A DNA stretch of 64,000 bases, taken from the NCBI GenBank assembly GCA_963848635.1, contig CAWKEA010000005.1, positions 111,341 through 175,340 of the forward strand, given 5' to 3'. The DNA comes from an uncultured bacterium. GTDB taxonomy: Bacteria; Patescibacteriota; Minisyncoccia; Phycocordibacterales; PALSA-1337. Positions 3,954 through 62,453 of this stretch are shown here, piece by piece. A program made the translations under genes and the position numbers. Each line of letters starts with the position of its first letter. The first letter of the stretch is position 1. Below the pieces are notes generated by a model. The model was not told the DNA's origin and made no database searches. It worked only from the letters and a program-made list of their open reading frames with translations.

Positions 3954-4967
3954 TTATTTTTTCGCTATGATAGTCTTTTTATACACATCCAAATGCTCCA
4001 TAGCGATGCCGGTTCCTTTCGCGACGCAGAACAGCGCATCCTCGGCGAGGACCGCCTTGACTCCCGTCCGACGGTAGACAAGCTCGGGAAAATTGCGGAG
4101 CATGGACGAGCCGCCCGTCATGATGATGCCATGGTCGATGATGTCTGAAGCGAGCTCGGGCGGCGTTTCCTGAAGGACGTCCTTCATGGCTTTTATCATG
4201 TCGCGCAGTTCTTTGACGATGGCTTTTGTGATCTCGTTCGTGCGCAATTCGACGGAACGCGGCAGACCAGTGATGAAATCGCGGCCTTTGACCGTCATGA
4301 CGAGCTCCTCATCGAGGGGCACGGCAGAGCCGATCTTGATCTTTATGTCTTCGGCCATCTGATCGCCGATACCGAGGTTGTGGGTCTTTTTTATATAATC
4401 AGCTATAGCCGCATCGATCTTATTGCCTGCTACTTTGACCGAAGCAGACGAAACAATGCCGCCAAGCGAGATGACGGCCACGTCGGTCGTTCCGCCGCCG
4501 ATATCAACGACCATATGCCCGCGAGCTTCATGGATAGGAATGCCCGCGCCGATGGCAGCAAGAACTGGTTCCTTGACAACATAGGCATTGCGAGCGCCAG
4601 CGCGCAGAGCGGCCTCGACAACGGCGCGACGCTCTGTCGATGTGATCGATGCCGGTACAGATACGATGACGTCCGGTTTCCAAATATTCCATTTTCCGAG
4701 AGCCTTGTCGATAAAATAGCGGAGCATCGCTTCTGTTACGCGATAATCCGCGATGACGCCGTCACGCATCGGCTTGTAAGCGATGATGGTGTCAGGCGTG
4801 CGTCCGACCATTTCCTTTGCTTCTATGCCGACAGCGAGGACTTTTTTGTCGATTTGGGAAATAGCAACGACTGAAGGCTCGTTCAAAACGATGCCTTTGC
4901 CGGGCACAAAAACGAGCGTATTGGCCGTGCCAAGGTCGATACCGAGCTGTTTAGAGAAGAAAGCCAT
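3954..4967 (-). CDS. mreB: Rod shape-determining protein MreB, actin homolog (paralog 1)
   Basis: GIDLGTANTLVFV phosphate-1 motif, DIGGGTTD, actin-fold conservation throughout; likely real start MAFFSKQLGIDLG at 4967 rather than the track start 5063. Confidence 0.85.
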   Translation of the reverse strand: MAFFSKQLGIDLGTANTLVFVPGKGIVLNEPSVVAISQIDKKVLAVGIEAKEMVGRTPDTIIAYKPMRDGVIADYRVTEAMLRYFIDKALGKWNIWKPDVIVSVPASITSTERRAVVEAALRAGARNAYVVKEPVLAAIGAGIPIHEARGHMVVDIGGGTTDVAVISLGGIVSSASVKVAGNKIDAAIADYIKKTHNLGIGDQMAEDIKIKIGSAVPLDEELVMTVKGRDFITGLPRSVELRTNEITKAIVKELRDMIKAMKDVLQETPPELASDIIDHGIIMTGGSSMLRNFPELVYRRTGVKAVLAEDALFCVAKGTGIAMEHLDVYKKTIIAKK

Positions 4968-5040
4968 TTGTGGATGGACTATATCACAAAATAGCCATGA
5001 ATCAAAGAATATAATCGATAAAAAATAAAAGAAAAAGCCC

Positions 5041-6378
5041 TCAATCCATGACTTCTTCACCATGAACTCTCCTTATATCAACGCCGAGAGCAGTCAAAGT
5101 CTCTTCGAGCGATTCATAGCCGCGATCTATGAGATGAACGTTATGTACAACAGAATTTCCTTTTGCAAGGAGGGCTGCGAGAACTATTGCAAAGCCCGCG
5201 CGGATGTCGTGGGCTGTGAGCTCTTGGCCGGCGGACAAAGCTTTGTATGAGGTCGGACCAGTGACAAGGATCTCGCGAGAATTCATGACTTTAATATTTG
5301 CACCAAGATTGTTTAAATCGTCGACATACTTGAACCTTCCCTCGAAGATAGTTTCAAAGACGATACTCTCGCCTTTTATTTGGGACAAGTAGACTGCGGC
5401 GATCGGCTGGAGGTCGGTCGGAAAGCCTGGATATTCGTGCGTGCGAATGCTTGCAGATTTAAAAGAAGAATTCTTAAGTTTACCGTTCCCCTTTACCCTA
5501 ATAAAATCTTTTCCTATTTCAAGGGGTACGCCGGAGCTTGCAAGAAAATTTGTCGTCGCTTCCAAATGCTTTGGCTCGCATTTTGAGACGAGGAGGTCGT
5601 CCGCGCACAGAGCTCCGAGAAAAAGAAAGCTGGCCGCTTCGATCCGATCTGGAATCGCTCTATATGATTTTTTGGCCTTTAATGGTTTTCCGCCGCGAAT
5701 CGTCATCGTCGTCGTACCTGCACCATCGATTTTTGCTCCGCATTCATTCAGCCATTTTGCGACGCTCTCGATCTCTGGCTCCATGGCGCAATTCTTGAGA
5801 GTTGTTGTCCCCTTTGCCAAAACAGCCGCCATCATTAGGGTTTCTGTGCCAGTGACAGTCTGGATCGGAAAGAAGATATCCGCCCCTCTCAAGCCGTCTT
5901 TCGGCGCGGTTATCTTGAACATGCCGTCTTTTTCAAGAACGATCGCGCCCATTTTCTTGTATGCTGTGATAAAGAGATCGACTGGTCGCGCGCCGATGAC
6001 ACAGCCGCCAGGCGACGGAAAAGAGACCTCGCCGTAACGCGCGAGTATAGGACCGGTCGTTACAATAGACGAGCGCATGCTCTGCGAGATAAGAGGATCG
6101 AGATCGGCAGAAGAAAGATCCGAGGCATCGATCGAAAGCATATCCCTGCCGCCGCTTTTTCGCTTTTCCACCTTCGCGCCAAGTCCTACGAGCAGGTCAG
6201 ACATGCTATCGATATCGGCTGTGAGGGAAATATTTCGGATATCGATCGCGTCTTTAAAAAGGATGCTCGCCGCCATCGCCTTCAAAATAGCGTTTTTCGC
6301 GCCCTTGATTCGCACTTCGCCGCGCAAGGCCTTCTTGCCCGCGAGGCCTTTTACGACGAATGAGTCAGTTTGGGACAT
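5041..6378 (-). CDS. murA: UDP-N-acetylglucosamine 1-carboxyvinyltransferase MurA
   Basis: VKGLAGKK...RIKGAKNAILKAMAASIL N-terminus, conserved along the whole length; probable start MSQTDS at 6378. Confidence 0.9.
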   Translation of the reverse strand: MSQTDSFVVKGLAGKKALRGEVRIKGAKNAILKAMAASILFKDAIDIRNISLTADIDSMSDLLVGLGAKVEKRKSGGRDMLSIDASDLSSADLDPLISQSMRSSIVTTGPILARYGEVSFPSPGGCVIGARPVDLFITAYKKMGAIVLEKDGMFKITAPKDGLRGADIFFPIQTVTGTETLMMAAVLAKGTTTLKNCAMEPEIESVAKWLNECGAKIDGAGTTTMTIRGGKPLKAKKSYRAIPDRIEAASFLFLGALCADDLLVSKCEPKHLEATTNFLASSGVPLEIGKDFIRVKGNGKLKNSSFKSASIRTHEYPGFPTDLQPIAAVYLSQIKGESIVFETIFEGRFKYVDDLNNLGANIKVMNSREILVTGPTSYKALSAGQELTAHDIRAGFAIVLAALLAKGNSVVHNVHLIDRGYESLEETLTALGVDIRRVHGEEVMD

Positions 6379-16491: not shown

Positions 16492-19268
16492 TTATTTTTT
16501 ATACTTCTCGTTTATCTGCGCTTCTATCTCCGCGCGATCCTTGCCATAGGTCAAGTATGATAATTCTTTCAGCTTGCCTGCGATATCGCGATCGCCTTTT
16601 GGAATGTTCGGCACTGCTATATTGAATGGCTTCACAGGAATGCCTTTTGCGAGGATCTTTACATATGCGTTGAAGTTGTCGATATTGAGAATATCTTTTT
16701 GGGTAAAGACGGGCTCGAATTGCTTTGCAAGGAATTCAGCGTCTTCGGTGCCGACGCGGAAGATGGCCATGGATCCGACGTTGCCGAAGACGGCGTTCTT
16801 TATCTTTTCATCGAGCTGTTTGATGAATTGGTGCGCGATGTTAAGCGACAATTTATATTTGCGCGCTTCGGACAAGATCGTCGAGATGGAATCGGTGGTG
16901 ATATTCTGGAATTCATCGACATACAGATAGAACGGCGGCAGATCCTTGCCCAATCGAATCGACGCGCGACAGAGCAGCCATGAGGATCTTGCCGATCAAA
17001 ATGAGGCCGATGAGGTTCGCGTTGATGTCGCCAAGGCGGCCTTTGGACAGATTGACGAGCAGGATCTTCTTATTGTCCATGATGTCGCGGAAATTGAAGG
17101 TCGATTTTTCCTGGGCGATGACCGGGCGCATGATATCGTTGGCCAGGAAATTGTCGAATTTGGAGACGATGTACGGCACGATGTTGGCGAGCGACGCCTC
17201 ACCGCCAGCTTTGTCCGCCACCTCGCGCCAGAACTGGATGACAAGCGGATTCTTGCACGTGGCCAATTTCGATTCGCGGAAAGCCTTGTTTGAAAGGACG
17301 CGCGAAACGTCGATGAGCGTGTTATTTGACGAAGGGTCATCAATGGTAAGGAGGACCGCATTGCGGAAATATTGCTCGAACATAGGCCCGCCTGCGGTCT
17401 TCATATCAAAAAGCTTGTTGAATATTGAGAGCATCTCGTTCACGACGAAGGTCTTTTGCTCGGGATAGCGAGTATCATATTCGAGCATGTTCAAGCGCCA
17501 TCGGCCGCGCAGTATAGGCAGGATCGAAATAGATGACGTCCTCGAACCGGTTCGGCGGCACGAGGGAAAGGATGTCTTCGACGTCGGATCCGTGCGGGTC
17601 GATAAAACAGAGGCCATTCCCTTTTTGCATGTCCTGAAGGATCATGTCCTTGAGGAGAGTCGTCTTGCCGGTGCCTGTCTGGCCGATGACGTAAAAATGG
17701 CGCAAGCGGTCTTCGTCGGTCGTGAACACCTTTGTCTCGCGGCCTCGGTCGCTGTTTTTGCCGAGATAGGTGCCCGATTGCGGCAAGTCCATCGGCGCGG
17801 GAGCAGAGCCTGATTTCGTCAATTTGACCTGCGATGTCGAAATGCGGCCAGCGACCGGCAAATGCATGACGGTGGCCAACTCGCGGAGAGAAAGCGGGCA
17901 ATCGTAATCGCCATCGAATCGCCGATATGTGAAGGTATCGAGCTCTTTTTCGAGCTTGCCCTTTGTCGCGCGCGCGAATTCAAAGCGATTGCCAAGCGTA
18001 TTCTCGAACTGGCTGAAAGAGGCCTCGAGGTCGGTCAAGATCGCATCTGCCTTCTCTTGGCTTTCCGCCGAAGCGACGATGCGGATGTTGGTCGACAGAA
18101 TAGGCGAAGCGAGCTTGCTCTGTATCTCTTTCATCCCGAGCTCGTCCTCTGGACGCGGCCCTTTCTGAGACTTTTTTTCTTCTTTTTTCTTTTCCTTGTC
18201 CTCCTTGCTCGTCGTAAGATTGTTCAAAAGGCCGACCATGCCGGAAGCGGCGCCCTTTATAGCCTTGTGGCCGAGAGAATAGGCGATATCGATCGCTTCG
18301 CTGAGCTTTTCGCCTTTTTGTATCTTCTCAAGCGCTTTCCTATATTTATCTGAAAAAAATCCGCCGACAGGATTGAAAACGATCTGAATGCATCCTCCTT
18401 CGCCGTCCTTGTCGATCTTTGAGAAACTGTTCAAAAGCGCATTGATCGGGTCATGGTCGAACTGCTCATATGTCTTTATGGGAAAGATATGATTCCGCGC
18501 CTGCCGTGCATATGAAGCCGCCACAGCCCCTTTTTCATTGAAGATATTGAAATCGTCCTTGTGCTCGGTTATTTTCGCGTCGGGAAATATCGAAAGGATC
18601 TGCTTTTCGAAAAGATTGCGCTTCTCGTCTGGCACGGCGGCATAAAAGACAAAATCGTCGCTGTGATTGGCCACGGCGATCTCAAAGGCAAAGATGCTGT
18701 TCACGCCGCCGCTATTGACTGACATTCCCGCGTAGAACTGTTCCATGGATGAAAGGAGCTCTTTGAGCGGCTTCTGCGTCCCGTCTTTCTTTTCATTTTC
18801 CGGCACAAGGATCTCGAACAGCGACATCTTGAGAGAGCTCCACAGATCGTCTTTCTCTTTCAAGCCGCCGATGATAAAGCCGGATTTTATATATTGCACG
18901 AGCAATCGATGGAAGTCGTCGGAGACGTGCGGGTCATCCATCTTTTCGACGACGGAAAGGGTCGCATGGATGCCTTTCGTCTCAAGCATGCCGAGAAGCT
19001 CGTTCATCTTTCCATCGTGCGCTTCCGGCGCGAGGTCGAGCACGACGGCCTCCATCTCCGGCGTCGGCACGATGTATTTTTCGTGCAAAACCTCGTCAGG
19101 CTTTTTCTCGGCATATTTCACGACTTCCTCGCGCGCCACATGCTCGACGCTCCCATCTGGCGTCTTTTCGAGCAGGTCGCGCTCGCGCCTTGCGATCATC
19201 TCGCGCAGATATGCGATCTCCTCCTGCGGATTGGTGAATTTTTCCTGCGTGCCTGTTAGGTTTTCCAT
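16492..19268 (-). pseudogene. VirB4/TrbE/CagE-family type IV secretion ATPase with a 440-aa N-terminal domain, split into three frames (two frameshifts near 17490 and 16935)
   Basis: Walker A GQTGTGKTT, then in the next frames ...LLVNLSKGRLGD...ILMAALSR and ...PPFYLYVDEFQNI...EARKYKLSLNIAHQFIKQL, the VirB4-type Walker B and RK..QS motifs. Confidence 0.65.
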
Positions 19269-44371: not shown

Positions 44372-45247
44372 TCAGCGGCCTTTCGGAGAAGTCGGAGAAG
44401 TCGTAGAAGTCGACGAGGCGGTCATGACAGAACCGGAAAAAGGCTTGGGCCGTGGAACATTCGTCCCGACGAGCATAAAAAGCGATTGATACGGATTTAT
44501 GCCTTCGCTGAATAATATCCTTTCAAAGGGCTGTTCGGGATTTGAAATGACAGCGTCGACAGCGCCAAACGGCGAAGAAGAAACTGCCGGGATGATCACC
44601 TCGTCACCCATGGATACGCCCGATTCACGGGAGACCGATGCGGAAAAGAATCCGCCGCCTTGCCCGGCCGCCGTCGCCGGTACATGGGCTGAACCGACAA
44701 GGACATCGTAGCTCGTTCCCGGCGAGGAATAAAGCTCGGCCTTTGAAGAATGTGCATCGGCTTCGACGATCTGACCGACGGGGATAGATCCTACAGAATA
44801 TACCGAATCGCCAATTGACACGCCAAGAGTCGAACCGATATCCAAGATGAGATAATCGTAGCCAGAGCCCGGAGGTCTGCGCAGGACATCGGCCAGAACA
44901 AGATCGTTCGTACCGCCAGACCGGCCGAGGAGAGACCTCAGTTCATTTACCTCGTCCAACAAGGCTTTCGAGCTTGATGCTGTGGCTTGGTCCTGTGCAA
45001 GCTGTTCCTGAAGAGCCTGATTCTCTTGCTCTAATTGCGTCTCCGATGTCATGCCGGAAACAGCGGAATCTTTGCCTGACCACAACGGCAAAAAAAGATG
45101 CGAGAAAGCCGAAGAAAGCGTGCGAGGAGATGCTAATTGGATGATCAGAACGATAAGGACGAAGGCAACGGCAAAAGCGATCGGCCGAGAGATCATCCGG
45201 CCGCTCTTCTGCCGACGTGAAAAATTATTTTGGTCGCGCGATCTCAT
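44372..45247 (-). CDS. mreC: Rod shape-determining protein MreC
   Basis: N-terminal TM, coiled coil (QLEQENQALQEQLAQ), beta-rich C-terminal domain; directly downstream of mreB. Confidence 0.8.
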   Translation of the reverse strand: MRSRDQNNFSRRQKSGRMISRPIAFAVAFVLIVLIIQLASPRTLSSAFSHLFLPLWSGKDSAVSGMTSETQLEQENQALQEQLAQDQATASSSKALLDEVNELRSLLGRSGGTNDLVLADVLRRPPGSGYDYLILDIGSTLGVSIGDSVYSVGSIPVGQIVEADAHSSKAELYSSPGTSYDVLVGSAHVPATAAGQGGGFFSASVSRESGVSMGDEVIIPAVSSSPFGAVDAVISNPEQPFERILFSEGINPYQSLFMLVGTNVPRPKPFSGSVMTASSTSTTSPTSPKGR

Positions 45248-46283
45248 CTTCGTTTTGTATGAGGACGTCTTTGTATTTGTCGAGATCCTCGAGGATTATG
45301 CCCGTGCCGCGCGCGATGGCCGTCAATGGGTCGTCAGCGATATGGACGGGGATCTGCAGAGTGTGCGCGATGAGCTCATCAAGTCCTTTTATGAGCGCGC
45401 CGCCGCCGACAAGATATGCTCCGCGGCGCATGACATCGGACAGAATCTCCGGCGGAGTCGTTTCCAGGACTTCTTGGGCCGCCTGCACGAGCACGTCAAT
45501 GCTCGCGCCCATGGCTTCTCGTATATCAGAATCAGTGATGACGACCTCCCGCGGCAAACCAGTGATGAGATCACGACCGCGAATGGGGATCTCGAGCGCC
45601 TCCTTTGGGACGACGGCGCCGACGGCGATCTTTATCTCTTCTGCTGTCTTTTCGCCGATGAGGATCTTGAATTCGTTCCGTATATAGGAAATGATGTCGG
45701 TATTGAGCTTGTCTCCGGCGATCTTGATGTTCTTTGAACGGACGATGCCGCCGAGCGAGATGACGGCAATGTCGGTGGTGCCGCCTCCGATATCGATGAC
45801 CATAGAACCGATAGGCTCATGTATAGGAAGGCGTATGCCGATGGCGCCAGCCATAGGCTCTTCGACGATATAGACTTCACGTGCGCCCGCATTCCTCGTG
45901 GCGTCGCGGACGGCGCGGACCTCGACGTTCGTCACGCCCGAGGGAACTCCAACGACGACGCGCGGGCCGAGCGTTTTCTTTGAGAATTCTTCTGCCTTGC
46001 GCACGAGATACGAGATCATCTCTTCAGTTATCTCGAAATCAGAGATGACGCCGTCGACCAAGGGACGGACCGCTTTTATATGCGCCGGAGTGCGGCCGAG
46101 CATGTCTTTTGCTTCCCTGCCTACGGCTACGACACGGCCGGTCTTTTCATTGACGGCGACGACCGAAGGCTCATTGACGACGATTCCATGGCCCGCCAAA
46201 TACACGAGGGTATTGGCAGTGCCGAGGTCTATGCCTATATCATTGGAAAAACGGCCGTATATTTTTTGAAGGAAATCATTCAT
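45225..46283 (-). CDS. mreB: Rod shape-determining protein MreB (paralog 2, head of the mreBCD-mrdA operon)
   Basis: IGIDLGTANTLVYL, DIGGGTTDIAVISLGG; start MNDFLQKIYG at 46283. Confidence 0.9.
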   Translation of the reverse strand: MNDFLQKIYGRFSNDIGIDLGTANTLVYLAGHGIVVNEPSVVAVNEKTGRVVAVGREAKDMLGRTPAHIKAVRPLVDGVISDFEITEEMISYLVRKAEEFSKKTLGPRVVVGVPSGVTNVEVRAVRDATRNAGAREVYIVEEPMAGAIGIRLPIHEPIGSMVIDIGGGTTDIAVISLGGIVRSKNIKIAGDKLNTDIISYIRNEFKILIGEKTAEEIKIAVGAVVPKEALEIPIRGRDLITGLPREVVITDSDIREAMGASIDVLVQAAQEVLETTPPEILSDVMRRGAYLVGGGALIKGLDELIAHTLQIPVHIADDPLTAIARGTGIILEDLDKYKDVLIQNEDEIARPK

Positions 46284-46371
46284 GAGTGAAAGGTAGCTGT
46301 ATCCTATCACCAGTCCTGAAAATGGCAAATTTTCGATGCGTTCACAGCCGGCAATCATGCACGCCGACCCG

Positions 46372-46968
46372 TTATCCTGCATTAAAAACGCTCATGGCCT
46401 TTTCTCGGCCTTCCTTTACGATCATCTCGATCGCCTCGGAGGATTTTTTTGCCGCTTTTTTGATCTCCTTGATCTCATCGTCTTTGTATTTTCCTAGAAT
46501 GAATTTGAGGACCTTTTCATCGCCGTGCGGGACTTTGGCGTTTCCCTTGGCGTTTTCGGCGGCCGTGCCGATGCGGATGCGGATGAAGCCTTCGGTCCCG
46601 AGCGCTTTGATGATAGATTCGAGGCCGTTATGTCCGCCAGAGCTTCTGTTGAAAGAGATCTTGATGCGGCCGATCGGCAGTTGGAAATCATCATATATGA
46701 CGACCAGCTTTTCGGCCGATTTCTTGCTTTTGACGAGACGGGCGAGAGCCGAACCGCTCTTGTTCATGAATGTCTCCGGCTCGACGAATATGATCTTTTC
46801 CTTGCCGATCTTTCCGTTTGAGACGAGCGCATTGACTTTCTTGTCAAAAGAAAGCTCGTCGGCATCAAACTGCTCCCGAACAGCGTCAAGGACGATACGG
46901 CCCGTATTGTGCCGCGTCATCTCATATTCTTCTCCAGGATTTCCGAGGCCTGCGATTATGTATGGCAT
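46372..46968 (-). CDS. pth: Peptidyl-tRNA hydrolase
   Basis: MPYIIAGLGNPGEEYEMTRHNTG N-terminal signature with catalytic His. Confidence 0.9.
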   Translation of the reverse strand: MPYIIAGLGNPGEEYEMTRHNTGRIVLDAVREQFDADELSFDKKVNALVSNGKIGKEKIIFVEPETFMNKSGSALARLVKSKKSAEKLVVIYDDFQLPIGRIKISFNRSSGGHNGLESIIKALGTEGFIRIRIGTAAENAKGNAKVPHGDEKVLKFILGKYKDDEIKEIKKAAKKSSEAIEMIVKEGREKAMSVFNAG

Positions 46969-47073
46969 AGTATGGTACAAGTATAAAATCGAACGGCCGT
47001 AAAGTCAAAAGCGCCTTTCCGGCGCCTTGAGCAAAGATCGGCAAAGGGTCTCCCTTGCGCTTCTTTTAAATTT

Positions 47074-48205
47074 TTAAACCGTGGCTTTTTCTCCGGCGAC
47101 GCGATAGCGGTTGTCTTTGTCTTTCTTGAAATATTTCGAGTTCTGGAGATTGACGGCAATAGTGTTCTCCTTGACATAGCGCTCCTTCAAGACTTTTGTG
47201 ATGATCTCGTCTTTGGTGAGCGGGCCGTTCTTTTCGATGATCTTTCTGATGACGTCCTTTACGACGCCCGACATATAGCCCCATTCTGACAGAGCATAGA
47301 GGCCGCGGCCGACGAGGACGAAACGAGGGTCTTTGATGAGCTCGTTATGAGTCGTGGCGACATGAGCCTTTTTCTTGAAAATTTTTGTGATCTGGTTGGC
47401 GACTTCGCGGAAATGTATCGGCGAACCGTGCTTTCGGATGACGAGGAACGCGTAATCTCGCACGCCCTTGGTCTTTATGTTCGGAGAATGAGCGACGCCC
47501 CATTCGCCGAGAGCGTTCTTGCCGATCTTCTTTGAGAGGTTGAGCCAGCGCTTGATGATCTCCTGATTCTTGTATTTTTCCGAAACATCGCCGAGGTGCT
47601 CGATGAATTTGTTCACCATCTCCGATTCAGGGAGGAGGTCGTCGTTCGAGAGACTGCCATAGAGCTTCTTGAGCGATCCCTCGACGTCTCCGGCGAGCTT
47701 CTCGTCGACATGCCAACGATGATGGAATTCATCGTCTTCCTTGCGCTTGCGGAAAGCCGTCGCCAAGGACAAGGAGAAAATACACATGGTTCTGAAGGCT
47801 CTGGTCTTTTGAGGCCGAGCCCAAAAAATCGTCTTCGACGACGATGCCGCCGAGCGAACGGAGCAGGTCTTCGAGCTCGATGAACGTCTTGGACTCGCTC
47901 TTGTAGGCGTCTGATTTGCGCACAACGTCGAGAGCGTAGTTCTCTATCTGACGGACGCGCTCGCGAGTGATGCCGTATTTTTTGCCGATAGCGTCGAGCG
48001 TCAGCTTGTCAGTCGACTTGCCGAGGCCGAAGCGTCCGACGACGACATCCCGTGCGCGGTCAGGCAGAGCCGCCAGAAGCTTCTTGACTACGATTTTCGG
48101 CTTGAACGTTGTGTTTGATGATGGCATGGATAAAAATGGGTAAATATGCGCTTGGCTTATTTGATAAGTAGTATATGTTCTATCATCTCCTTGTATGAAA
48201 GTCAA
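47074..48205 (-). pseudogene. Protein with N-terminal sigma-70 region-4-like HTH and an uncharacterised C-terminal domain; reading frame switches around 47800
   Basis: LTLDAIGKKYGITRERVRQIENYAL in the 47729-48205 frame; the protein-like sequence continues in the overlapping 47074-47925 frame. Confidence 0.45.
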
Positions 48206-48300: not shown

Positions 48301-51300
48301 CTATGCGAGAGGGATATTTGGGCAGACGATATTGATCAACCTTCCTTTTACAAGGATGATCCTTGATGGCGTCCCTCCATTGAGCCATTTTTTGACTGAT
48401 TCGAGCGCCAGTGCGGCGGTTTTGACGGCCTCATCAGAAGCATCGGCACTGACGTCCATTTCAGCCCTGGTTTTGCCGTTTATCTGCACGGCAATCTTGA
48501 TGCTTGACCCGACCAAGAGCGCCGGATCATATGCTGGCCAGGATTGCGCATGGATCGAGCCTTTGTTTCCAAGCACGCTCCAAAGCTCTTCGGTGATATG
48601 CGGCGCGAATGGCGCGAGAAGTTGCAAGAAAATGCCATAATTTTCTTTCGACACGGTTCCTTCGCCTGCAGCAGCTTTCTTGTCCTCCGTAGCTTTAGCG
48701 GAGGAGGATTCAAACTCGTTCAAGAGGATCATGAGAGCCGAGACGGCGGTGTTGAAGCGCATTGATTCGATGTCCTCGGAGACTTTTTTGATCGTTTTGT
48801 GGACAAGGGGGATGAGCTTTGGGTTTTCATTTTTGAGTTTTGCATTTTGAGTTTTGCATTTTTCTTGCAGTTTCCACACACGTTCAAGGAAACGGCGACA
48901 GCCGACGATGCCGTTCTCGTCCCAACTGATCGCCTGATCGAACGGACCCATGAACATCTCGTAGAGGCGCAGTGAATCGGCGCCGACGTTTTTGACGATT
49001 GCGTCGGGATTGATGACATTGCCGCGGGATTTCGACATCTTTTCTCCGCCGGGACCGAGGACGAAACCGTGCGCAGGTGCGCTTTGATATACGGTTCGGA
49101 TGTCGGAACGAGCCCTTGATCAAAGAGGAATTTGTGCCAGAAGCGCGAATAGAGGAGGTGCAAAGTGACGTGTTCCATGCCGCCGTTGTACCAATCGACC
49201 GGCGTCCAATGCTTCAATTTTTTCATATCAGCGAATTTCGTCGCGTTCTTTGGATCTGTATAGCGCAGATAATACCAGCTCGAGCCTGCCCAATTCGGCA
49301 TAGTGTCCGTTTCGCGCTTTGCTTTACCTTTACATTTAGGACATTTTACATTCACCCACTTTGAAATAGCCGCAAGCGGCGATTCGCCTGTTTCGGTCGG
49401 CTTGTAGTTTTTGACCGGCGGCAATTTGACCGGCAAGTCTTTTTCAGGAACCGGCACGATGCCGCATTTTTCGCAGTGAACGACGGGAATCGGCTCGCCC
49501 CAATATCGCTGGCGCGAGAATATCCAATCGCGCAGTTTGAACCTGTTCACCCATTGGCCGCAGGCGTATGCAGTGATCTCTTTCCTTATTTCGGCGCTTT
49601 TCTTGTCATTGAAACTGCCAGAATTTATGAGCAATCCTTCGCCGATGAAAGCGATATCAGTCTCGGAATGCAATCGAGCGAGCCAGAGCGGCAATTCCGA
49701 ATTGACCATCTTGCCGGGGATGAAATCAGCGGGGTCAATCCAGAGTATCTGGTTGCCTTCGCCGTTCTCGTCCGTTATCGGCACCCGCGCGTCGCTCTTC
49801 AATTCAAAGTAAAGGCCTGTGGCGATGGCGATCCTGTTCTCATCCTTGTGCTTGGCGAAATATTCGGCGCGCACCGGAGAGCCGAGCTTCTTCTTGAACT
49901 CGATATCGGTGTAGCCTGTCTCCTCCCTGACTTCCCTTTTTGCCGCTTCCACAAAATCCTCGCCAGCCTCGACACCGCCGATGACGACGGTATCCCAGCC
50001 ATGCTTGTCGTTTCGTATGATCAAATATTTTTTCTTGAGAGGGTCAAAGACGATCGCGTGCACGTTCGTCCGTATCTTGGACGGCTTGTCCGCGCGCGGC
50101 GGGTTCACATGGTCGACGATGCACGGCATTATGGCTTCCTTTATCGGTAAATCATATTTCTTGGCAAAGGCAAGATCACGGTCGTCGTGCGCTGGCACGG
50201 CCATCACGGCGCCGGTGCCGTAATCGGCAAGTACGTAGTCGGCGATGTATACGGGCACTTCTTCGCCGTTAACGGGATTTATCGCTTTGACTCCTTTCAA
50301 TTCGACGCCCATTTTTTCGCGGGTTGCATCGGTGCGTTCGATATCGCTTTCTTTCTTTGTCCTCGTTATATAGATAAGAGCCTCGCTCCTGTTTTTAATC
50401 AAAGGAAGAAAATCGCGGACCAGCGGATGCTCGGGAGCGAGCACGAGATATGTCACGCCGAACAAAGTGTCTGGGCGGGTAGTGAAGACCGTGATCGATG
50501 GCACGACGGCTTTCAATATTTCAGGTTCTTGATCTGCACGAAAATGCTCTCCATTGCTCTTTGTCTCTATGAGGCGAGCTTTCAAATTATTCGAAAGATG
50601 GCGAATATATTCGATTCTGAATTCTTCTTTAAGATCAGAGAGGATCGATATCTTTCCATTGGCCAAGCGTCGAATGAGATCATAATCTATATTCCAAGTA
50701 AAATTCTTCCAGTATGGTCTAGATTCAGCTTTGGGAAAAGAAGGATCGATTGCAGGAGAAACAAGAACAAGCCCAAAGATCGGTTTGTTCAACTTCATCA
50801 ATGCTTTCATCGCAACTACAGAGCCAAGCGAATGAGCGACGATGACGGTATTTTCATCGATCTTGCAATTTTGCAACACATATTCGACTTGTTCCGATTC
50901 TCTTGGATCCTCTGTGTTTGGAAGTTCGGGGATCTCAACTTCGTGACCGCGGCTTTCAAGTTCTGACTTGAGCCAGGCCCGAAAACTTCCTTTGGCGCTT
51001 CCTCTAAAACCATGAAGCAAAATGTATTTTAGTTTTTGCGGGCTCTTGAGTTCAAAGCTTATCTCCGCGCCTTCGCTCTTTCCGATCCAATTCCTCTGTT
51101 GGGCCTTGATCTCCGGCAAGTAATTCACCAGATCGAGGTCTTTGTCGAGGCGGTCGGCATATTTCGTGATGGCGAGCATCCACTGCTCCTTCTCGCGCTT
51201 TTCGACCGGCGTGCCGCAACGCTCGCATTTGCCGTCGACGACTTCCTCGTTGGCAAGGCCGATCAGGTCTTTCGGGCACCAATTGATGGCCATTTTTTTC

Positions 51301-51752
51301 TTGTAAGCGAGGCCATTCTTCAAGAATTGAAGGAAGATCCATTGCGTCCATTTATAGTAGTTCGGATCGGTCGTATTTATCTCGCGCGACCAATCAAAGG
51401 AAAAGCCGAGCGATTTCAATTGCTTGCGAAAAATAGCGGTGTTTTTCTTTGTGACGACGGCTGGCTGTATGCCGGTCTTGATCGCATAGTTCTCTGTCGG
51501 CAAACCAAAGGCATCCCAACCGATTGGATAGAGGACGTTGTAGCCTTCGCGGCGGCGCTTGCGCGAGATGATGTCCATGGCCGTGTTGCTCCTGATGTGC
51601 CCGACATGAAGGCCGTCGCCGGATGGGTATGGAAATTCGATGAGCGAATACCATTTCGGCTTCTTGGACGTGTCGCTCGCGACAAAAGCCTTTTTCTTGT
51701 CCCATTCCTTTTGCCATTTCGGCTCGATTTTTTTGTGGTCGTAGGGTTTCAT
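48301..51752 (-). CDS. leuS: Leucyl-tRNA synthetase with two in-frame inserted domains (alpha/beta-hydrolase at about 50499-51035, NUDIX at about 49659-50123) and an apparent frameshift at about 49069-49082 before the KMSKS motif
   Basis: HIGH-region PYPSGDGLHVGHIR, CP1 editing motifs TTRPDT and GTGAVMAVPAHD, KMSKSRGN in the downstream frame; inserted HGFRGS..VAHSLGS..D..H serine-hydrolase unit and Nudix box GGVEAGEDFVEAAKREVREETG. Confidence 0.85.
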
Positions 51753-51774: not shown

Positions 51775-52482
51775 TTACTGCTTCTTTTCAAAAGTAAATA
51801 TTGTACAAACATATTCATCACTATTTATCTTGTCCTTTTTGACTAGCTTCAATCCATTGTCTTCGAGGAGATCCTTATAATAATCTTCCTCTCTATCGTA
51901 ATCGATAACGGTGCCCATATCAGGAATCTCAACATAATGGAGATATTCTTTGTATTCCTTGCCTTTGAAATCAATGACATTTTTTTCTATAAAAAGATCT
52001 TTTTGAGTTTCAAGCTTGTTTCTTAGATATTCTTCGCTCGAGACTACCATGATCAACTTCCCGTTTTCATTGAGCATCGCCGATATCTTCTGAGCGACAT
52101 TGCTTAAATCGGCTTCTATGAAATGAGGAAAGACATATATAGCAGTGACGAAATCAAACTTTTCGCTTATCTTTAAATCCTGAAATGTATCTGGATATAT
52201 TTTTACATTGTTCTTGCTTATATCGCTTTTTGAGAAGTAGTCGAGACTCTTTTTTGAAGGCTCACAACCAGTAATAAAGACGTCATCGCCATATCTTTTC
52301 TTTAACATTCTTATAAAAAAACCGATTCCAGAGCCAATATCAAATAGCTTGAAGGGCGCTTTCTTATTTGAAATTATCTCATCAAGAATGAATTTGTTTA
52401 CAGCGACATTCAAGTGAGTCTTGTCCTGATTCACCCAGTTGATTTTGTTGTATTGCTGAAAGAAAAAGTTACGATTTTTCAT
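51775..52482 (-). CDS. Class I SAM-dependent methyltransferase in a strongly AT-rich segment
   Basis: Motif I LFDIGSGIGFF; AT content clearly higher than the flanking leuS and secA. Confidence 0.65.
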   Translation of the reverse strand: MKNRNFFFQQYNKINWVNQDKTHLNVAVNKFILDEIISNKKAPFKLFDIGSGIGFFIRMLKKRYGDDVFITGCEPSKKSLDYFSKSDISKNNVKIYPDTFQDLKISEKFDFVTAIYVFPHFIEADLSNVAQKISAMLNENGKLIMVVSSEEYLRNKLETQKDLFIEKNVIDFKGKEYKEYLHYVEIPDMGTVIDYDREEDYYKDLLEDNGLKLVKKDKINSDEYVCTIFTFEKKQ

Positions 52483-52520
52483 CTTTGAGATATTAACACG
52501 GAAATTGTTTGCATCAAACC

Positions 52521-53102
52521 TCAATCTTTTATCTTCTTTATCCCAAGAATAACCAAGATAACGAGAGCAACCGCGAGGACACCAAATCGCAGATAATCGT
52601 TCATATCCGACCAATAGCGGACCGAAGCGACGACGAGCGCGAGCACGCCGCCGAGCGAAAGGCCGAGCGAGACTGCGGCAGACTTTTGGATGAAGAAGCC
52701 GACAATGAGCGAGATCACTCCCAAAATAACGAGGACGACGAACACATTGCGATTATATACGCTATCTGCAGTAGTGAAATTCTTTTGGCAGGTAAAGTTG
52801 ACGTCGCAGTAGCCAGCAGGTTGTTCGATTACAACTTTGGAAAGTGTTCCTTGCGGCGTTGGAGCTGGAACGGCATAAGCGGCATTGCTCGTCCAACCGC
52901 CGCCGACAGCAACGCATTCGGCCTGTGTTGAGGGCGGCGTTGTCACTTGGGCAACCGGACAGAAATTCTCGAACGTTGGCACGTTATAAAAAACCTTTAT
53001 GCCATAGACGAAAAAGAGGTTGAGCACAATGACGATTCCAAGAATCAAAAGCCATTTCAAGACTTTACTTGGCTGAGAGAATGATGTGTTTTGTATTTCC
53101 AT
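52521..53102 (-). CDS. Hypothetical membrane protein (start MEIQNTSF at 53102)
   Basis: N-terminal TM, Cys-containing ectodomain, C-terminal TM helices. Confidence 0.5.
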   Translation of the reverse strand: MEIQNTSFSQPSKVLKWLLILGIVIVLNLFFVYGIKVFYNVPTFENFCPVAQVTTPPSTQAECVAVGGGWTSNAAYAVPAPTPQGTLSKVVIEQPAGYCDVNFTCQKNFTTADSVYNRNVFVVLVILGVISLIVGFFIQKSAAVSLGLSLGGVLALVVASVRYWSDMNDYLRFGVLAVALVILVILGIKKIKD

Positions 53103-60473: not shown

Positions 60474-62453
60474 TTATGCGAGCGCCGCCTTTATCCTCCG
60501 CACCCCTTGCGAGCTGGCTTCTTCTTTTTGGATCTTGAAGCGCCATTTCCCTTCGGGACCGGCCAGTTCGGACGTATTTTTGACATGAGGGCCGCCGCAG
60601 AATTCTTTTGAATACGCGTTCTTTAGATCGTCGATCGTTGGAGGGTTCGATGCAGGGCCGATAAAGTAGATCGAGATCCGATCTCCGTATTTTTCGCCGA
60701 AGAAATGCCGCGCGCCTGTTTTTTCGGCTTCCGCTCGAGGCACGATGATCTGGTTCACCGGCAGAGCGGCCTTGATCTTTTCATTGACGATCTCTTCCAC
60801 TTTTTTCTTTTGCTCGTCAGTGAGCTTTACGCCGTTAAAGTCATAGCGCAGACGTTCGGCCGTGATATTCGAGCCTTTTTGGCTTCCTGATTCCTCACCC
60901 AAAACATCATGGAGAGCCTGTTGAAGGAGGTGCGTCGCGGTATGATATCGGACCACCATCGGATCGTTCGCGTCAGCGAGGCCGCCCTTGAATTTTTGTT
61001 CGGCGCCGGCGCGCGAGAGGTCTTGGTGCTTTTTGAATTCTTCATGAAAGCCTTTCTCATCGACGTTAATTCCCTTCTCTTTTGCGATATCGACGATAAG
61101 TTCAAGCGGTAAGCCGTAAGTTTGAAATATCTTGAAAGCGGCCAATCCTGGCATTATTTTCGGCATTTTTTCTAAATTTGACTGAGTTTCAACATCAGAG
61201 CTTCCTGTTAAAGCCGGGCCTCGAGTCCACAGATCAAATTCTTTTATCATCTCTTTATCAAGTTCCTTCGTTCCAAGCACGAGCGCCTCTGCGAACTTTT
61301 CCGATTCCTCGATGAGAACCTTCTTTATCAAAGCCGACTTCTCCACAAGCTCCGGATAGCTCTCCTTATATATCGAAATAAACGTATCGACGAATTTCGA
61401 TATTTCAGCCGCAGGGAGCTTTTTTGCCGCAGTATTCATGACAGCGCGGCGGATGAAGCGGCGGAGGATGTAGCCGCGATCGGTGTTCGACGGAATGACG
61501 CCATCTGTTATAAGGAAAATACTTGCCCGCAGATGGTCGGCAACGATGCGCTTGCTTCGGAGAGGCGTTTTCTCATCATTCAAAAGATCCATGACCGGCT
61601 TGAACAAATCAGTGTCGTAGGTATTGTCAGAACCGCTCAATGTGATCGTGAGCCGTTCAAGACCGGCGCCGGTGTCGACGGACGGCTTTGGGAGCTTGCC
61701 GACGATCTTGCCGTCTTTCTTTTCATATTGCATAAAAACGTCGTTCCACACTTCGACCACCTCTTGCGCGGCGTCAGCCTTTGCGTAATCCTCATGCGTC
61801 AAAAGCGCGCCTTTGTGCGTGTTCTTTATGTCATAGAACATCTCGGTATCGGGGCCGCACGGGCCGTTGTCGCCCGCTTCCCACCAATTGTTTTCCGCGG
61901 GCAGATAGAAGATACGACCAGCCTCGCCTTTGCTCGTATCGCCGCCGGCTTCTACTTTATTTTTCTTGAAAACATCGCGCCAGATGTCGGCGGCCTCGTC
62001 ATCGCGCGGGGCATTCTCATCGCCTGCAAAGACGCTGACATAGAGGCGCGTCGGATCGAGCCCGAGGCCTTGATCGCCTTTTGGCGCGTCGATCGGATTC
62101 GTCAGGAATTCAAAGCTCCAGCCGATAGCCTCGCGCTTGAAGTAATCGCCGAGAGACCAATTGCCGAGCATCTGGAAAAAAGTATGATGAGTCTTGTCGC
62201 CGACTGTGTCGATATCGACCGTGCGCAGACATTTCTGGATGTCTACAAGGCGAGCGACTCGCGCGCCATCCGCTGAAGCATACGGCTTGCCGAGCAAATA
62301 CGGCACCAAGGGCTGCATGCCGGCAGTATTGAAAAGCGTCGCGTTCGTCAGGCCTTTTTCGTCAGGCGTAACGAGCGAAGCCGACTGGATGACGGTGTGT
62401 CCCCTCTTCTCAAAAAAAGAAAGGAACCTCTGGCGTATTTCCGATGATTTCAT
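60474..62453 (-). CDS. alaS: Alanyl-tRNA synthetase, short form lacking the C-terminal C-Ala domain
   Basis: Class II catalytic core, editing-domain motifs HTATHLL and CGGPHV; 659 aa. Confidence 0.85.
   Translation of the reverse strand: MKSSEIRQRFLSFFEKRGHTVIQSASLVTPDEKGLTNATLFNTAGMQPLVPYLLGKPYASADGARVARLVDIQKCLRTVDIDTVGDKTHHTFFQMLGNWSLGDYFKREAIGWSFEFLTNPIDAPKGDQGLGLDPTRLYVSVFAGDENAPRDDEAADIWRDVFKKNKVEAGGDTSKGEAGRIFYLPAENNWWEAGDNGPCGPDTEMFYDIKNTHKGALLTHEDYAKADAAQEVVEVWNDVFMQYEKKDGKIVGKLPKPSVDTGAGLERLTITLSGSDNTYDTDLFKPVMDLLNDEKTPLRSKRIVADHLRASIFLITDGVIPSNTDRGYILRRFIRRAVMNTAAKKLPAAEISKFVDTFISIYKESYPELVEKSALIKKVLIEESEKFAEALVLGTKELDKEMIKEFDLWTRGPALTGSSDVETQSNLEKMPKIMPGLAAFKIFQTYGLPLELIVDIAKEKGINVDEKGFHEEFKKHQDLSRAGAEQKFKGGLADANDPMVVRYHTATHLLQQALHDVLGEESGSQKGSNITAERLRYDFNGVKLTDEQKKKVEEIVNEKIKAALPVNQIIVPRAEAEKTGARHFFGEKYGDRISIYFIGPASNPPTIDDLKNAYSKEFCGGPHVKNTSELAGPEGKWRFKIQKEEASSQGVRRIKAALA

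Follow-up and report, generated by a model that had tools for sequence, protein, structure and literature searches.

The window, a 64,000-nt stretch of DNA, carries on its minus strand (48301..51752) a leuS gene encoding a bacterial-type leucyl-tRNA synthetase (LeuRS) of 1149 aa once two inserted bases are removed; as sequenced, the gene is interrupted. Coordinates are positions in the window, all features of the gene lie on the minus strand, and residue numbers refer to the window LeuRS protein (WIN). The repaired protein scored 956.3 bits against the NCBIfam model TIGR00396 leuS_bact (cut-off 548.4) and matched Thermus thermophilus (Tt) LeuRS (PDB: 1H3N, E = 4e-207) in four collinear blocks. 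LeuRS structures were also the top Foldseek matches of the AF2 model (E = 4e-50). The gene is a syntenic housekeeping gene of a Patescibacteria (CPR) bacterium. The order of leuS followed by a Sigma70_r4/HARE-HTH gene was found with a plain leuS in loci L001 and L007 and with an insert-bearing leuS in L009, L024, and the window. Since the same syntenic position holds either a plain or an insert-bearing leuS in relatives, the window gene is not a paralogue.

The conserved part of the protein may be considered in terms of four segments. Residues 1-237 (51042..51752; GC3 = 0.71) cover the N-terminal half of the Rossmann catalytic core, with the HIGH motif, here HVGH (residues 49-52, 51597-51608), the cysteines of ZN1, and the initial strand of CP1 (AEISFEL). 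Residues 420-541 (50130..50495) form the CP1 editing core with the motifs TTRPDT (residues 424-429, 50466-50483) and GTGAVMAVPAHD (residues 512-523, 50184-50219). The match of this segment to PF13603 (189 bits) spans model positions 22-143 of 185, which places both of the inserts described below inside the Pfam envelope. The editing residues T424, T425, R426, D428, T429, and D523 (of AHD) are invariant across 41 homologues. Residues 700-890 (49083..49655) contain the end of CP1, the remaining half of the catalytic core, and the ZN2 hairpin (CPKCKG), and align to Tt LeuRS 375-579. Residues 893-1149 (48301..49074) lie in a shifted frame and contain KMSKS, the anticodon-binding domain (PF08264), and the C-terminal tRNA-binding domain, aligning to Tt 637-876. 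In the alignment to 1H3N, Tt 580-636 has no counterpart, and the leucine-specific domain is thus absent from the window LeuRS. The synthetic and editing motifs are intact. An earlier note on this DNA had described a LeuRS at 48301-51752, and HVGH, TTRPDT, GTGAVMAVPAHD, HGFRGS, AHSLG, GGVEAGEDFVEAAKREVREETGY, and KMSKS were all found where it placed them.

The reading frame is broken just ahead of KMSKS (49027-49041), which as sequenced lies in another frame than the upstream part. Three-frame translation identified two single-base insertions 7-8 nt apart, at about 49082/49083 and 49075. The window DNA from 49088 to 49067 reads ATCAAAGCGCACCTGCGCACGG, the corresponding DNA of the closest relative (P0004) reads ACAAAGCGCACCGCTCACGG, and homologous proteins align at this site as EPY[IT]KRTAHGFVLG. 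Removal of the two bases yields an intact LeuRS of 1149 codons, free of stops and of any further shift. As sequenced, the two 1-nt insertions (49067-49088) deprive the gene of the uninterrupted reading frame expected of leuS_bact. The earlier note had assigned KMSKS and the anticodon-binding end to a 1007-aa ORF; this assignment fails, since both lie in another frame past the insertions. The last 117 residues of that ORF, past ...EPYIK (residue 890), are out-of-frame junk, while the true C-terminal 257 residues are encoded at 48301..49074; the ORF listed there (48301..49038) has the M of KMSKS as its start. A naturally split alpha/beta LeuRS of the Aquifex type consists of two complete ORFs with their own starts and intact motifs. 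This possibility was rejected, as the first ORF here ends in out-of-frame residues and the second would start inside KMSKS.

The adjoining Sigma70_r4/HARE-HTH gene is also frameshifted (about 47745), although it is intact in L024. There are thus three frame-breaking indels within about 1.35 kb, the nearer pair of which falls in short base runs. Since the neighbouring gene is affected as well, an assembly error is likely, and the break in leuS is probably an assembly indel error or a sequencing artefact. It is rather improbable that the window copy is a real pseudogene, with LeuRS function lost or supplied elsewhere, or that the inserts are an assembly chimera. A pseudogene would account for the two extra bases, for the frameshift in a neighbour that is intact in L024, and for two unusual substitutions at conserved acidic sites of the window NUDIX domain. 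However, leuS is an essential, single-copy gene found here at its syntenic locus, the remaining motifs are all intact, and the other codons are undisturbed. The indel cluster itself fits local assembly error and local decay equally, short base runs being a common pattern of consensus error. A chimeric origin of the inserts is excluded: the same architecture, in frame at both junctions, was recovered in assemblies from JGI, ENA, NCBI, and Logan, and the design recurs in dozens of independent Patescibacteria assemblies with its catalytic residues conserved.

Insert 1 (residues 238-419, 50496..51041) is a complete cassette for a YdeN/RBBP9-type serine hydrolase. Its 182 aa stand in place of four residues (Tt 239-242) in the first CP1 hairpin. 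The insert scored 38-42 bits against Ser_hydrolase PF06821 (cut-off 22), with the single-sequence match covering model positions 2-94, and the family profile matched YdeN (1UXO, E = 9e-23, YdeN 6-172) and RBBP9 (E = 5e-19, 19-184) over their full length. An HG motif (residues 247-248) opens the sequence HGFRGS, the nucleophile S308 lies in AHSLG (306-310; 50823-50837), and the acid and histidine are E376 (50625-50627; also D373) and H403 (50544-50546). All 50 embedded copies compared keep S308, H403, H247-G248, and D or E at 376. Together with a pLDDT of 90-97 for this region in an 890-aa AF2 model, these data uphold the proposal of the earlier note that such a hydrolase is inserted at the entry to CP1. 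With B. subtilis YdeN (1UXO) and human RBBP9 (2QS9/9FCR), insert 1 shares a length of about 185 aa, the HG motif, a GxSxG-type elbow, and a Ser-acid-His triad. Whereas these relatives are free proteins, insert 1 is internal to another enzyme, and its elbow is AHSLG with Glu as the acid in the window copy. RBBP9 removes amino acids that have a free alpha-amine (PMC8866121), and a reference in PMC7730578 lists it as an enzyme that activates valacyclovir, a nucleoside analogue esterified with an amino acid. No confident equivalent of the amine-anchoring Glu108 of RBBP9 was mapped in insert 1. The composition of the insert is foreign, with a GC3 of 0.39 compared to 0.65 in the remainder of the gene (p = 1e-10).

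Insert 2 (residues 542-699, 49656..50129; GC3 = 0.73) is a type A NUDIX cassette that follows the editing core, its 158 aa standing in place of 12 residues (Tt 363-374). The Nudix box GGVEAGEDFVEAAKREVREETGY (residues 592-614, 49911-49979) fits GX5EX7REUXEEXGU at every position from G592 to Y614, and the box residues are 93-100% conserved among 105 embedded copies. The insert scored 46-51 bits against PF00293 (cut-off 21.1). AF2 modelled it with a pLDDT of 88.4 and a pTM of 0.83 (84-93 pLDDT within the 890-aa model), and Foldseek matched it to many NUDIX hydrolase structures with a probability of 1.0. From the Pfam score, the confident fold, and the conserved box, the NUDIX hydrolase that the earlier note had read at this position is confirmed. 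The X-loop carries Y631-F632 with AxHKxxNR after it, in line with a family signature of [FY][FY]AxHKxxNR. The position 17 residues past the box is Y631 in the window and aromatic in 96 of the 105 copies (53 Phe, 43 Tyr), a correlative marker only. A Tyr at about this distance is described as a mark of ApnA hydrolases (Dunn et al. 1999, as cited in PMC5389931). The window copy deviates at two conserved acidic positions, with N663 where 100 of 105 copies have E and Q668 where 84 of 105 have E or D. None of the equivalogs for characterised Ap4A hydrolases or RppH was reached, the best NCBIfam matches (NudB, RppH, NudE) being far below their cut-offs. The PDB fold matches are otherwise generic, with Ndx1 (an Ap6A hydrolase), Ap4A hydrolases, and RppH among the nearest, while the best PDB sequence matches of the NUDIX profile include the decapping enzymes AvrM14 and Dcp2. 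Small NUDIX hydrolases such as Ndx1 (1VC8), Aquifex Ap4A hydrolase (3I7U), E. coli RppH (4S2W), and an E. faecalis protein (2AZW) share the fold (TM to target 0.64-0.76), the canonical box, and the +17 aromatic residue; however, identity to insert 2 is only 15-26%, and the insert 2 family has its own signature and is found mostly inside aminoacyl-tRNA synthetases (aaRSs). The substrate specificity of a NUDIX domain is not readable at the sequence level.

Both inserts are in frame, with junctions at ...ELKS|PQKL and ...VVPS|ITVF for insert 1 and ...KEAI|MPCI and ...SETD|IAFI for insert 2. Inteins are recognised by a Hint domain, an N-terminal Cys or Ser, a C-terminal His-Asn with a +1 nucleophile, and often a homing endonuclease. 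The inserts have no Pfam match to Hint or endonuclease domains, adopt hydrolase folds, and have the junctions given above; an intein reading was rejected. The view of the earlier note that both are in-frame enzymatic domains and not inteins agrees with these results, with Pfam scores above the gathering cut-offs, and with the conserved catalytic residues. Of the checks that it suggested, the mapping on 1H3N placed both insertion points within CP1, and the search for inserts in CPR homologues was strongly positive. Both cassettes keep their catalytic residues and are predicted to fold as independent domains nested in CP1 surface loops.

Compared to the bacterial LeuRSs of known structure from T. 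thermophilus (1H3N/2BYT), E. coli (4AQ7), and N. gonorrhoeae (6Q89), the window protein has the same collinear class Ia core with HIGH and KMSKS, CP1 in the bacterial position with its T-rich motif and conserved Asp, and the ZN1, ZN2, anticodon-binding, and C-terminal domains. It differs in carrying two whole enzymes in CP1, with nothing comparable at these loops in the solved structures, and in the missing leucine-specific domain. Other aaRSs also gained extra catalytic modules by domain insertion (CP1, INS, and AlaX-type editing modules, the NF040702 IleRS with an N-acetyltransferase, and the appended domains of eukaryotes). The modules described here differ in belonging to general hydrolase superfamilies, in being nested inside CP1, and in being swapped like cassettes. 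CP1 is itself an insertion (PMC13114784), and a 2026 survey of 48,551 insertion events classed it as insertion-exclusive with zero host events (PMC13114784).

The hydrolase-bearing LeuRS belongs to a large family and is not a one-off. Among 120 homologues, 27 architectures were found that combine NUDIX-A, NUDIX-B, serine hydrolase, HAD, and several unknown modules at five or more sites, including 214, 234, 544, the mid region, and the ZN2 hairpin. Since the query itself carried inserts, insert-bearing LeuRSs are over-represented in this set. The sites are all in loops outside the conserved motifs, most of them in or beside CP1, and the insertions are always internal, with no N-terminal fusion among the 120. 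WIN and P0004 are 93% (residues 1-237), 87%, and 88% identical in their core segments, compared to 47% and 27% in the inserts; identity at third codon positions is 27% in insert 2 and 60% in the core. Relocation is seen in P0005, which is 85-92% identical in its core and carries the WIN-type NUDIX (79% identity) at site 214. One NUDIX cluster (at least 50% identity) is found seven times at site 544 and 17 times at site 214. Among the 150 best representatives of NUDIX clusters at 50% identity, 119 are LeuRSs or LeuRS fragments, 30 are free-standing, and one is a ProRS, an unrelated class II enzyme with an internal NUDIX of the same family. Members of the insert family occur in CPR bacteria and, probably, in a DPANN archaeon. 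With modules replaced or relocated at sharp boundaries between close relatives, the inserts behave, as judged from these alignments, as exchangeable cassettes. The anatomy and cassette evolution described here are considered very probable.

In other lineages, the modules are separate genes directly upstream of leuS. This arrangement was found for six of the nine nearest free-standing homologues examined, whose wider neighbourhoods are of at least four kinds. Free serine hydrolases lie 5-48 nt upstream (P0121, P0122, P0125), and free NUDIX genes lie 2 nt (P0196), 578 nt (P0187), or one small ORF (P0188) away. The remaining three do not adjoin leuS, and a serine hydrolase homologue is part of a phage-like gene cluster. 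A HAD-like gene is found 18 nt upstream of leuS in L024, and another follows a free serine hydrolase-NUDIX fusion, which is adjoined by an ORF with a faint match to LAGLIDADG proteins. In the window, a low-GC methyltransferase gene is directly upstream of leuS and pth is two genes away.

These observations may be read as exchangeable hydrolase cassettes, nested in CP1, that act as accessory enzymes tethered to LeuRS. As a whole, this statement is offered tentatively, at slightly less than an even chance. A real functional link of the modules to aaRSs is, on balance, probable, while the specific chemistries proposed for them are doubtful. The modules would work with the synthetase and would not replace CP1 editing. 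The most likely role of the NUDIX domain would be that of a (di)nucleoside-polyphosphate pyrophosphohydrolase, removing the ApnA-type compounds that aminoacyl-adenylate chemistry yields on the side; Ap3-5N are made mainly by aaRSs (PMC7705103). The serine hydrolase would most likely cleave an ester or amide of an alpha-aminoacyl group whose amine is free, such as an aminoacyl ester, stray or wrongly made, on a nucleoside or the end of a tRNA, or a by-product related to these. The leuS linkage, the ProRS host, and the X-loop aromatic residue lend circumstantial support to the putative Ap4A hydrolysis or extra proofreading that the earlier note suggested. That one and the same module works at sites 214, 234, and 544 and in the mid region speaks against an exact geometric fit to the editing or synthetic pocket and is compatible with simple tethering or with co-expression. 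Fast replacement and a foreign GC signature are also unusual for a core quality-control function, and LeuRS is not known to be among the strongest producers of Ap4A.

The same mobility suggests that position is not critical, as would be expected if the modules were ordinary house-cleaning enzymes (nucleotide sanitisers, a generic esterase, a phosphatase) mechanistically unrelated to aminoacylation, for which LeuRS is a tolerant scaffold. Streamlined CPR genomes would first have placed them in the leuS operon and then in permissive LeuRS loops, gaining constitutive expression and stability. This is a possible but unlikely explanation. The loop location of every site, the free-standing homologues away from leuS, the generic NUDIX fold matches, and the known role of aaRSs as favoured hosts of domain insertion (PMC13114784) are consistent with it. 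However, 120 of the top 150 NUDIX cluster representatives are aaRS-bound, including the unrelated ProRS, and the spot directly upstream of leuS is kept across at least four wider neighbourhoods. Simple loss of a stop codon would also yield N-terminal fusions, for which the count was 0 of 120.

Turnover of cassettes between near-identical cores could also reflect an arms race in epibiotic bacteria, with the cassettes neutralising something directed at LeuRS or tRNA, be it a toxin, an antimetabolite, or a signalling nucleotide; nucleotide alarmones, aminoacyl-nucleotide antibiotics, and modified 3' ends of tRNA are candidate targets. The foreign GC3 of insert 1 beside a low-GC methyltransferase gene, the homologue in a phage-like cluster, the faint LAGLIDADG-like ORF, and the spread across CPR bacteria and, probably, a DPANN archaeon point in this direction. 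Against this, neither insert had a meaningful PADLOC match, PHROGs matches were generic, and the modules are fixed in a housekeeping gene across many lineages. We know of no LeuRS-directed toxin that is a substrate of NUDIX or alpha/beta-hydrolases, and this role is considered improbable. Similarly improbable is an action on tRNA, in which the serine hydrolase would provide an additional cis-editing or deacylase site for aminoacyl-tRNAs that CP1 leaves, and the NUDIX would act like RppH or Dcp2 on the 5' end of tRNA or RNA beside the acceptor stem. CP1, in or beside which most sites lie, does receive the tRNA 3' end, alpha-aminoacyl groups are cleaved by the RBBP9 family, and the profile and fold matches include AvrM14, Dcp2, and RppH. 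However, the fully intact CP1 editing residues leave no obvious editing gap, pth is two genes away, and the variable sites, which include the mid region and ZN2 hairpin, are at odds with a single geometry directed at tRNA. The mature tRNA 5' end is also a monophosphate.

The searchable literature contains no description of a LeuRS with exchanged, moved, or upstream-encoded hydrolase modules, nor an earlier report tying the NUDIX or serine-hydrolase superfamilies to aaRSs. LeuRS is among the best-studied enzymes in biology, and CP1 is the textbook example of an inserted editing module. Here, CP1 itself hosts complete and apparently active enzymes from unrelated superfamilies, a nesting that is unrecorded for CP1 in the 2026 survey. 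With one cassette at several sites and several cassettes at one site on near-identical scaffolds, the family is a natural experiment in domain insertion, and its permissive loops are useful for engineering LeuRS fusions. It also provides a testable assignment through guilt by association for two orphan enzyme families, the YdeN/RBBP9-type hydrolases and a NUDIX clade almost confined to aaRSs. Should ApnA or aminoacyl esters prove to be the substrates of the modules, this LeuRS would be the first synthetase with clearance of by-products hard-wired into it. In a broader and speculative view, which we consider unlikely as it stands, aaRS-embedded cassettes would be an unrecognised accessory system of ultra-small symbionts (CPR and, probably, DPANN). 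Horizontally exchanged NUDIX, serine-hydrolase, HAD, and unknown modules, entering and changing places among permissive loops of LeuRS and at least one ProRS, would couple aminoacylation to the destruction of a specific by-product, toxin, or signal of nucleotide or aminoacyl type, and would represent a new synthetase-linked quality-control or conflict system and not accidental fusions.

The leuS gene of the window (51752..48301, minus strand) encodes a leucyl-tRNA synthetase (LeuRS), but an unusual variant. With its reading frame repaired, the protein matches NCBIfam leuS_bact at 956 bits (cut-off 548) and aligns with T. thermophilus LeuRS (PDB: 1H3N, E = 4e-207) in four collinear blocks, pairing residues 1–237, 420–541, 700–899 and 904–1143 with T. 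thermophilus residues 1–238, 243–362, 375–579 and 637–876, respectively. The HIGH, KMSKS and TTRPDT motifs, the Asp of AHD and the zinc cysteines are all present and are invariant in 41 homologues. An AF2 model covering residues 1–890 (pLDDT = 82.7, pTM = 0.69) returned LeuRS structures as its top Foldseek matches (E = 4e-50). Taken together, the profile, alignment and structure searches uphold the LeuRS identity proposed in the earlier note. Unlike the T. thermophilus enzyme, in which a leucine-specific domain (residues 580–636) precedes KMSKS, and unlike E. coli LeuRS, which also has this domain before KMSKS, the window LeuRS contains no counterpart. The domain is missing from the window LeuRS and from all of its Patescibacteria relatives, where the consensus reads HGLILAEGGEKMSKS.

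The earlier note had described one 1007-aa ORF that included KMSKS, which proved incorrect. In the ORF listing, the minus strand has a 1007-aa ORF (51752..48729) that overlaps a 245-aa ORF (49038..48301), the second starting at the M of KMSKS. From a three-frame translation, the LeuRS reading exits the 1007-aa ORF after ...LVPTSEPYIK and resumes in another frame, the one holding KMSKS (48301..49074), as AHGFVLGPGGEKMSKSRGNV. Fourteen homologues align at the break site as EPY[IT]KRTAHG[FL].L., and the DNA of P0004, the closest relative of the window LeuRS, reads ACAAAGCGCACCGCTCACGG where the window reads ATCAAAGCGCACCTGCGCACGG. The lesion therefore consists of two separate 1-nt insertions, 7–8 nt apart, within 49067–49088; an 8-nt tandem duplication (GCGCACCT) was ruled out as the cause because the homologues retain 'KRT' there. 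Deletion of both extra bases restores an intact 1149-aa LeuRS. The next gene downstream, encoding a Sigma70_r4 and HARE-HTH protein (48205..47074, minus strand), likewise has its frame broken near 47745, where a 1-nt shift at GGCTTTCCGCAAG leaves two overlapping ORFs; its orthologue in L024, the locus of P0004, is a single 350-aa ORF. A programmed frameshift and a naturally split LeuRS were both ruled out: no slippery site is present, the second ORF would begin within KMSKS, and the neighbouring gene is shifted too. The clustering of three frame-breaking indels in approximately 1.35 kb (two in leuS and one in the Sigma70_r4/HARE-HTH gene), the position of the leuS pair in short base runs and the otherwise clean state of an essential gene suggest that these breaks are consensus errors.

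Two blocks of the protein have no equivalent in the T. thermophilus structure: insert 1 (residues 238–419) stands in place of residues 239–242, and insert 2 (residues 542–699; 49656–50129) in place of residues 363–374. The match to the Pfam editing domain (PF13603) is confined to residues 419–544 and to model positions 22–143 of 185; thus, both inserts lie within the CP1 envelope. The serine alpha/beta-hydrolase and NUDIX domains that the earlier note had placed here were both recovered.

Insert 1 matches Pfam Ser_hydrolase (PF06821) at 38–42 bits (cut-off 22), the single sequence reaching no further than the model's first half. A profile built from 20 embedded serine hydrolases spans the full length of B. 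subtilis YdeN (PDB: 1UXO, E = 9e-23) and human RBBP9 (E = 5e-19). Within 50 embedded copies, H247-G248, S308 (at the elbow AHSLG/GHSLG) and H403 are invariant, residue 376 is always Asp or Glu (Glu in the window), and D373 is found in 44. AF2 confidence is 90–97 throughout the insert. The GC3 of insert 1 is 0.39 versus 0.65 in the remainder of leuS (Fisher p = 1e-10), and the dip matches the insert boundaries.

Insert 2, with a native-like GC3 of 0.73, matches Pfam NUDIX at 46–51 bits (cut-off 21). Its Nudix box, GGVEAGEDFVEAAKREVREETGY, is an exact fit to GX5EX7REUXEEXGU, and the key residues of the box are conserved at 93–100% in 105 embedded copies. Modeled alone with AF2 (pLDDT = 88.4, pTM = 0.83), the insert was matched by Foldseek to NUDIX hydrolases with a probability of 1.0, the best being 2AZW, NudI, the T. 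thermophilus Ap6A hydrolase Ndx1, MutT1, RppH and Ap4A hydrolases. A sequence-profile search of the PDB gave weak and mixed matches to AvrM14, 2AZW, lupin Ap4A hydrolase, Dcp2 and DIPP, and no NCBIfam equivalog was reached. With respect to substrate class, NCBIfam, the PDB profile search and Foldseek returned generic, weak or mixed matches only. The embedded family shares an X-loop signature, [FY][FY]AxHKxxNR, that begins 17 residues past the box and corresponds to Y631-F632 in the window. The window copy has N663 versus Glu in 100 of 105 copies, and Q668 versus Glu or Asp in 84 of 105; position 668 is still Glu in its closest relatives. Judged from these substitutions, the activity of the window NUDIX may be weakened.

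A search with the full-length LeuRS returned thousands of LeuRS matches, the best 120 of which were analysed; this sample is biased since the query is itself insert-bearing. All 120 belong to Patescibacteria, some of them to Taylorbacteria and Kaiserbacteria MAGs, and derive from JGI, ENA, NCBI and Logan assemblies, so that the insertions are indeed shared by CPR homologues from several assembly sources. An intein or an assembly chimera was rejected as the source of the inserts on the strength of the hydrolase Pfam matches and the recurrence of the same design in other assemblies. Lengths range from approximately 945 aa (NUDIX only), via approximately 1120–1170 aa (NUDIX and serine hydrolase, as in the window), up to 1300–1722 aa. 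Insertions occur at approximately 214, 234, 544, 713/763 and 810 in window numbering, and classification of each inserted block against reference modules yielded 27 distinct architectures. Four module types are of recognised kinds, namely NUDIX-A, NUDIX-B (whose box has Q in place of E and A in place of R), serine hydrolase and HAD; another four, of 110–125 aa, are without any Pfam match. The latter are found in P0005, P0009, P0018 and P0038 (site 544), in P0035, in P0081 (site 713) and in P0118 (site 763); the modules designated U125, V110 and X713 had no match in Pfam, and an ASCH-like identity for the 121-aa module of P0118 was dropped for want of Pfam support. The four, classed as unknown domains, occupy the same LeuRS loops as the hydrolases.

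The modules are exchanged as cassettes. Between the window LeuRS and P0004, amino acid, nucleotide and third-codon-position identities are 93%, 84% and 62% for the N-terminal core, 87%, 77% and 48% for CP1, and 88%, 81% and 61% for the mid-core. They fall sharply at the insert edges, to 47%, 56% and 38% for insert 1 and to 27%, 41% and 27% for insert 2, where the third-position value is at the level of random sequence. The divergence of the inserts is beyond neutral and therefore indicates replacement, not relaxed drift. The window NUDIX is 79% identical to the NUDIX found at site 214 of P0005 (residues 213–369), where it is flanked by ...LLEGLDAVEY and PLLDLPEIKAQQRNWIG. P0005 has a core 85–92% identical to that of the window and, at site 544, an unrelated module of 125 aa. 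Of the copies in one NUDIX cluster (≥50% identity), 17 occupy site 214 and 7 occupy site 544; a second cluster is spread over site 214 (10 copies), site 234 (6) and site 544 (1). A search of the cassette boundaries for direct or inverted repeats as a trace of transposition gave only short chance matches.

The modules are also tied to aminoacyl-tRNA synthetase (aaRS) genes when free-standing. The nearest free-standing homologues are proteins of approximately 160–190 aa from CPR and DPANN assemblies. Contig context was examined for nine of these. Six of the nine genes shortly precede leuS and share its strand, with at least four kinds of wider surroundings: the serine hydrolases P0121, P0122 and P0125 (5, 24 and 48 nt upstream, respectively) and the NUDIX proteins P0196 (2 nt), P0187 (578 nt) and P0188 (one small ORF between). 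The other three are away from leuS, one of them in a phage-like cluster. There (contig L023), the serine hydrolase homologue P0126 (31% identity) lies in a series of approximately 18 short ORFs that share a strand and include one for a Lar_restr_allev protein, in what looks like a phage or mobile-element context. In L024, the insert-bearing leuS is preceded, at a distance of 18 nt, by a 127-aa HAD_2-like gene (5599–5982); thus, all three hydrolase types occur directly upstream of leuS in some genome. P0173 (325 aa; L010, 1362–2755) is a free-standing serine hydrolase–NUDIX fusion. The gene after it begins MKPVLFIDFDGTL and has the HAD DxDxT motif; the ORF before the fusion has a faint LAGLIDADG_3 match. 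The position preceding the Sigma70_r4/HARE-HTH gene is held by a plain leuS in some genomes and by an insert-bearing leuS in others, and the decorated LeuRS is therefore the housekeeping copy. When the NUDIX profile was searched against 1.84 billion cluster representatives, 161 clusters were found at E ≤ 1e-30. The best 150 comprise 119 LeuRSs or LeuRS fragments, 30 free-standing proteins and one ProRS, P0365 (643 aa). This archaeal-type ProRS, whose nearest relative is a Pacearchaeota (DPANN) protein (45% identity), carries the NUDIX at residues 398–515, between the anticodon-binding and C-terminal domains.

Several other genes of the window were noted. Directly upstream of leuS is a SAM-dependent methyltransferase (51775–52614, minus strand) with a GC of 0.345 and a GC3 of 0.39 versus approximately 0.5 and 0.6 for the window. 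It shares the composition of insert 1, is absent from the corresponding position in L024 and, judged by composition, is probably a recent foreign acquisition. The second gene downstream of leuS encodes a peptidyl-tRNA hydrolase (Pth, 178 bits; 46372–46980, minus strand), and genes for MreB, MreC and PBP2 come next; L024 has the same order, leuS–sigma/HARE–MreB–MreC–PBP2, without pth. The window contains two MreB paralogues (3954–5063 and 45225–46382, both minus strand) and a short AlaRS of 659 aa (60474–62453, minus strand) with a catalytic-domain match in two separate stretches. At 16492–19268 (minus strand) is what may be another frameshift-broken gene: three ORFs of 597, 234 and 153 aa overlap on one strand, and a TraG-D_C match in the last of them suggests a type IV coupling protein.

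Insert-bearing sequences are already public, and the annotation given by some pipelines is 'leucyl-tRNA synthetase/ADP-ribose pyrophosphatase/predicted esterase'. Full-text literature searches identified no paper describing a LeuRS or other aaRS with NUDIX, hydrolase or CPR insertions, and aaRSs go unmentioned in a 2017 review of the Nudix clan. In a 2026 survey, the LeuRS editing domain is reported to be insertion-exclusive with zero host events (PMC13114784).

Two other explanations may be considered for the presence of hydrolases within LeuRS. In the main one, LeuRS is only a tolerant scaffold for the co-expression of house-cleaning enzymes. The variable insertion sites favour such a scaffold; however, the NUDIX clade is specific to aaRSs and the operon position by leuS is conserved, both of which speak against it. 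A role in conflict or immunity would account for the rapid turnover of the cassettes, but PADLOC and PHROGs, searched for anti-phage defence or phage origin of the inserts, gave no meaningful match and lend this role no support.

The favoured reading is that the inserts would be tethered accessory hydrolases of LeuRS, and it draws on what is common to the synthetases and on the activities of related hydrolases. To our knowledge, what class I LeuRS and class II ProRS have in common is limited to the chemistry of the adenylate and the acceptor end of the tRNA, and no aaRS-specific compounds other than Ap3-5N have the NDP-X structure cleaved by NUDIX enzymes. RBBP9 is the one characterised relative of the serine hydrolase known to us, and the bond concerned in valacyclovir activation is, in its chemistry, that of a nucleoside aminoacyl ester. 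Ap3-5N arise chiefly from aaRSs (PMC7705103), and an X-loop Tyr approximately 17 residues past the Nudix box correlates with ApnA hydrolase activity (PMC5389931). RBBP9 takes off amino acids bearing a free alpha-amine (PMC8866121) and is cited, in the reference list of PMC7730578, as a valacyclovir-activating enzyme. The data establish the anatomy of the gene, the conserved catalytic residues, the exchange of cassettes and their tie to aaRS genes, and the chemistry is inferred. The NUDIX would thus act on ApnA-type by-products and the serine hydrolase on aminoacyl esters, an assignment of substrates that is put forward tentatively. That the modules are functionally linked to the aaRSs is the sounder proposition, and one that we regard as reasonably likely.
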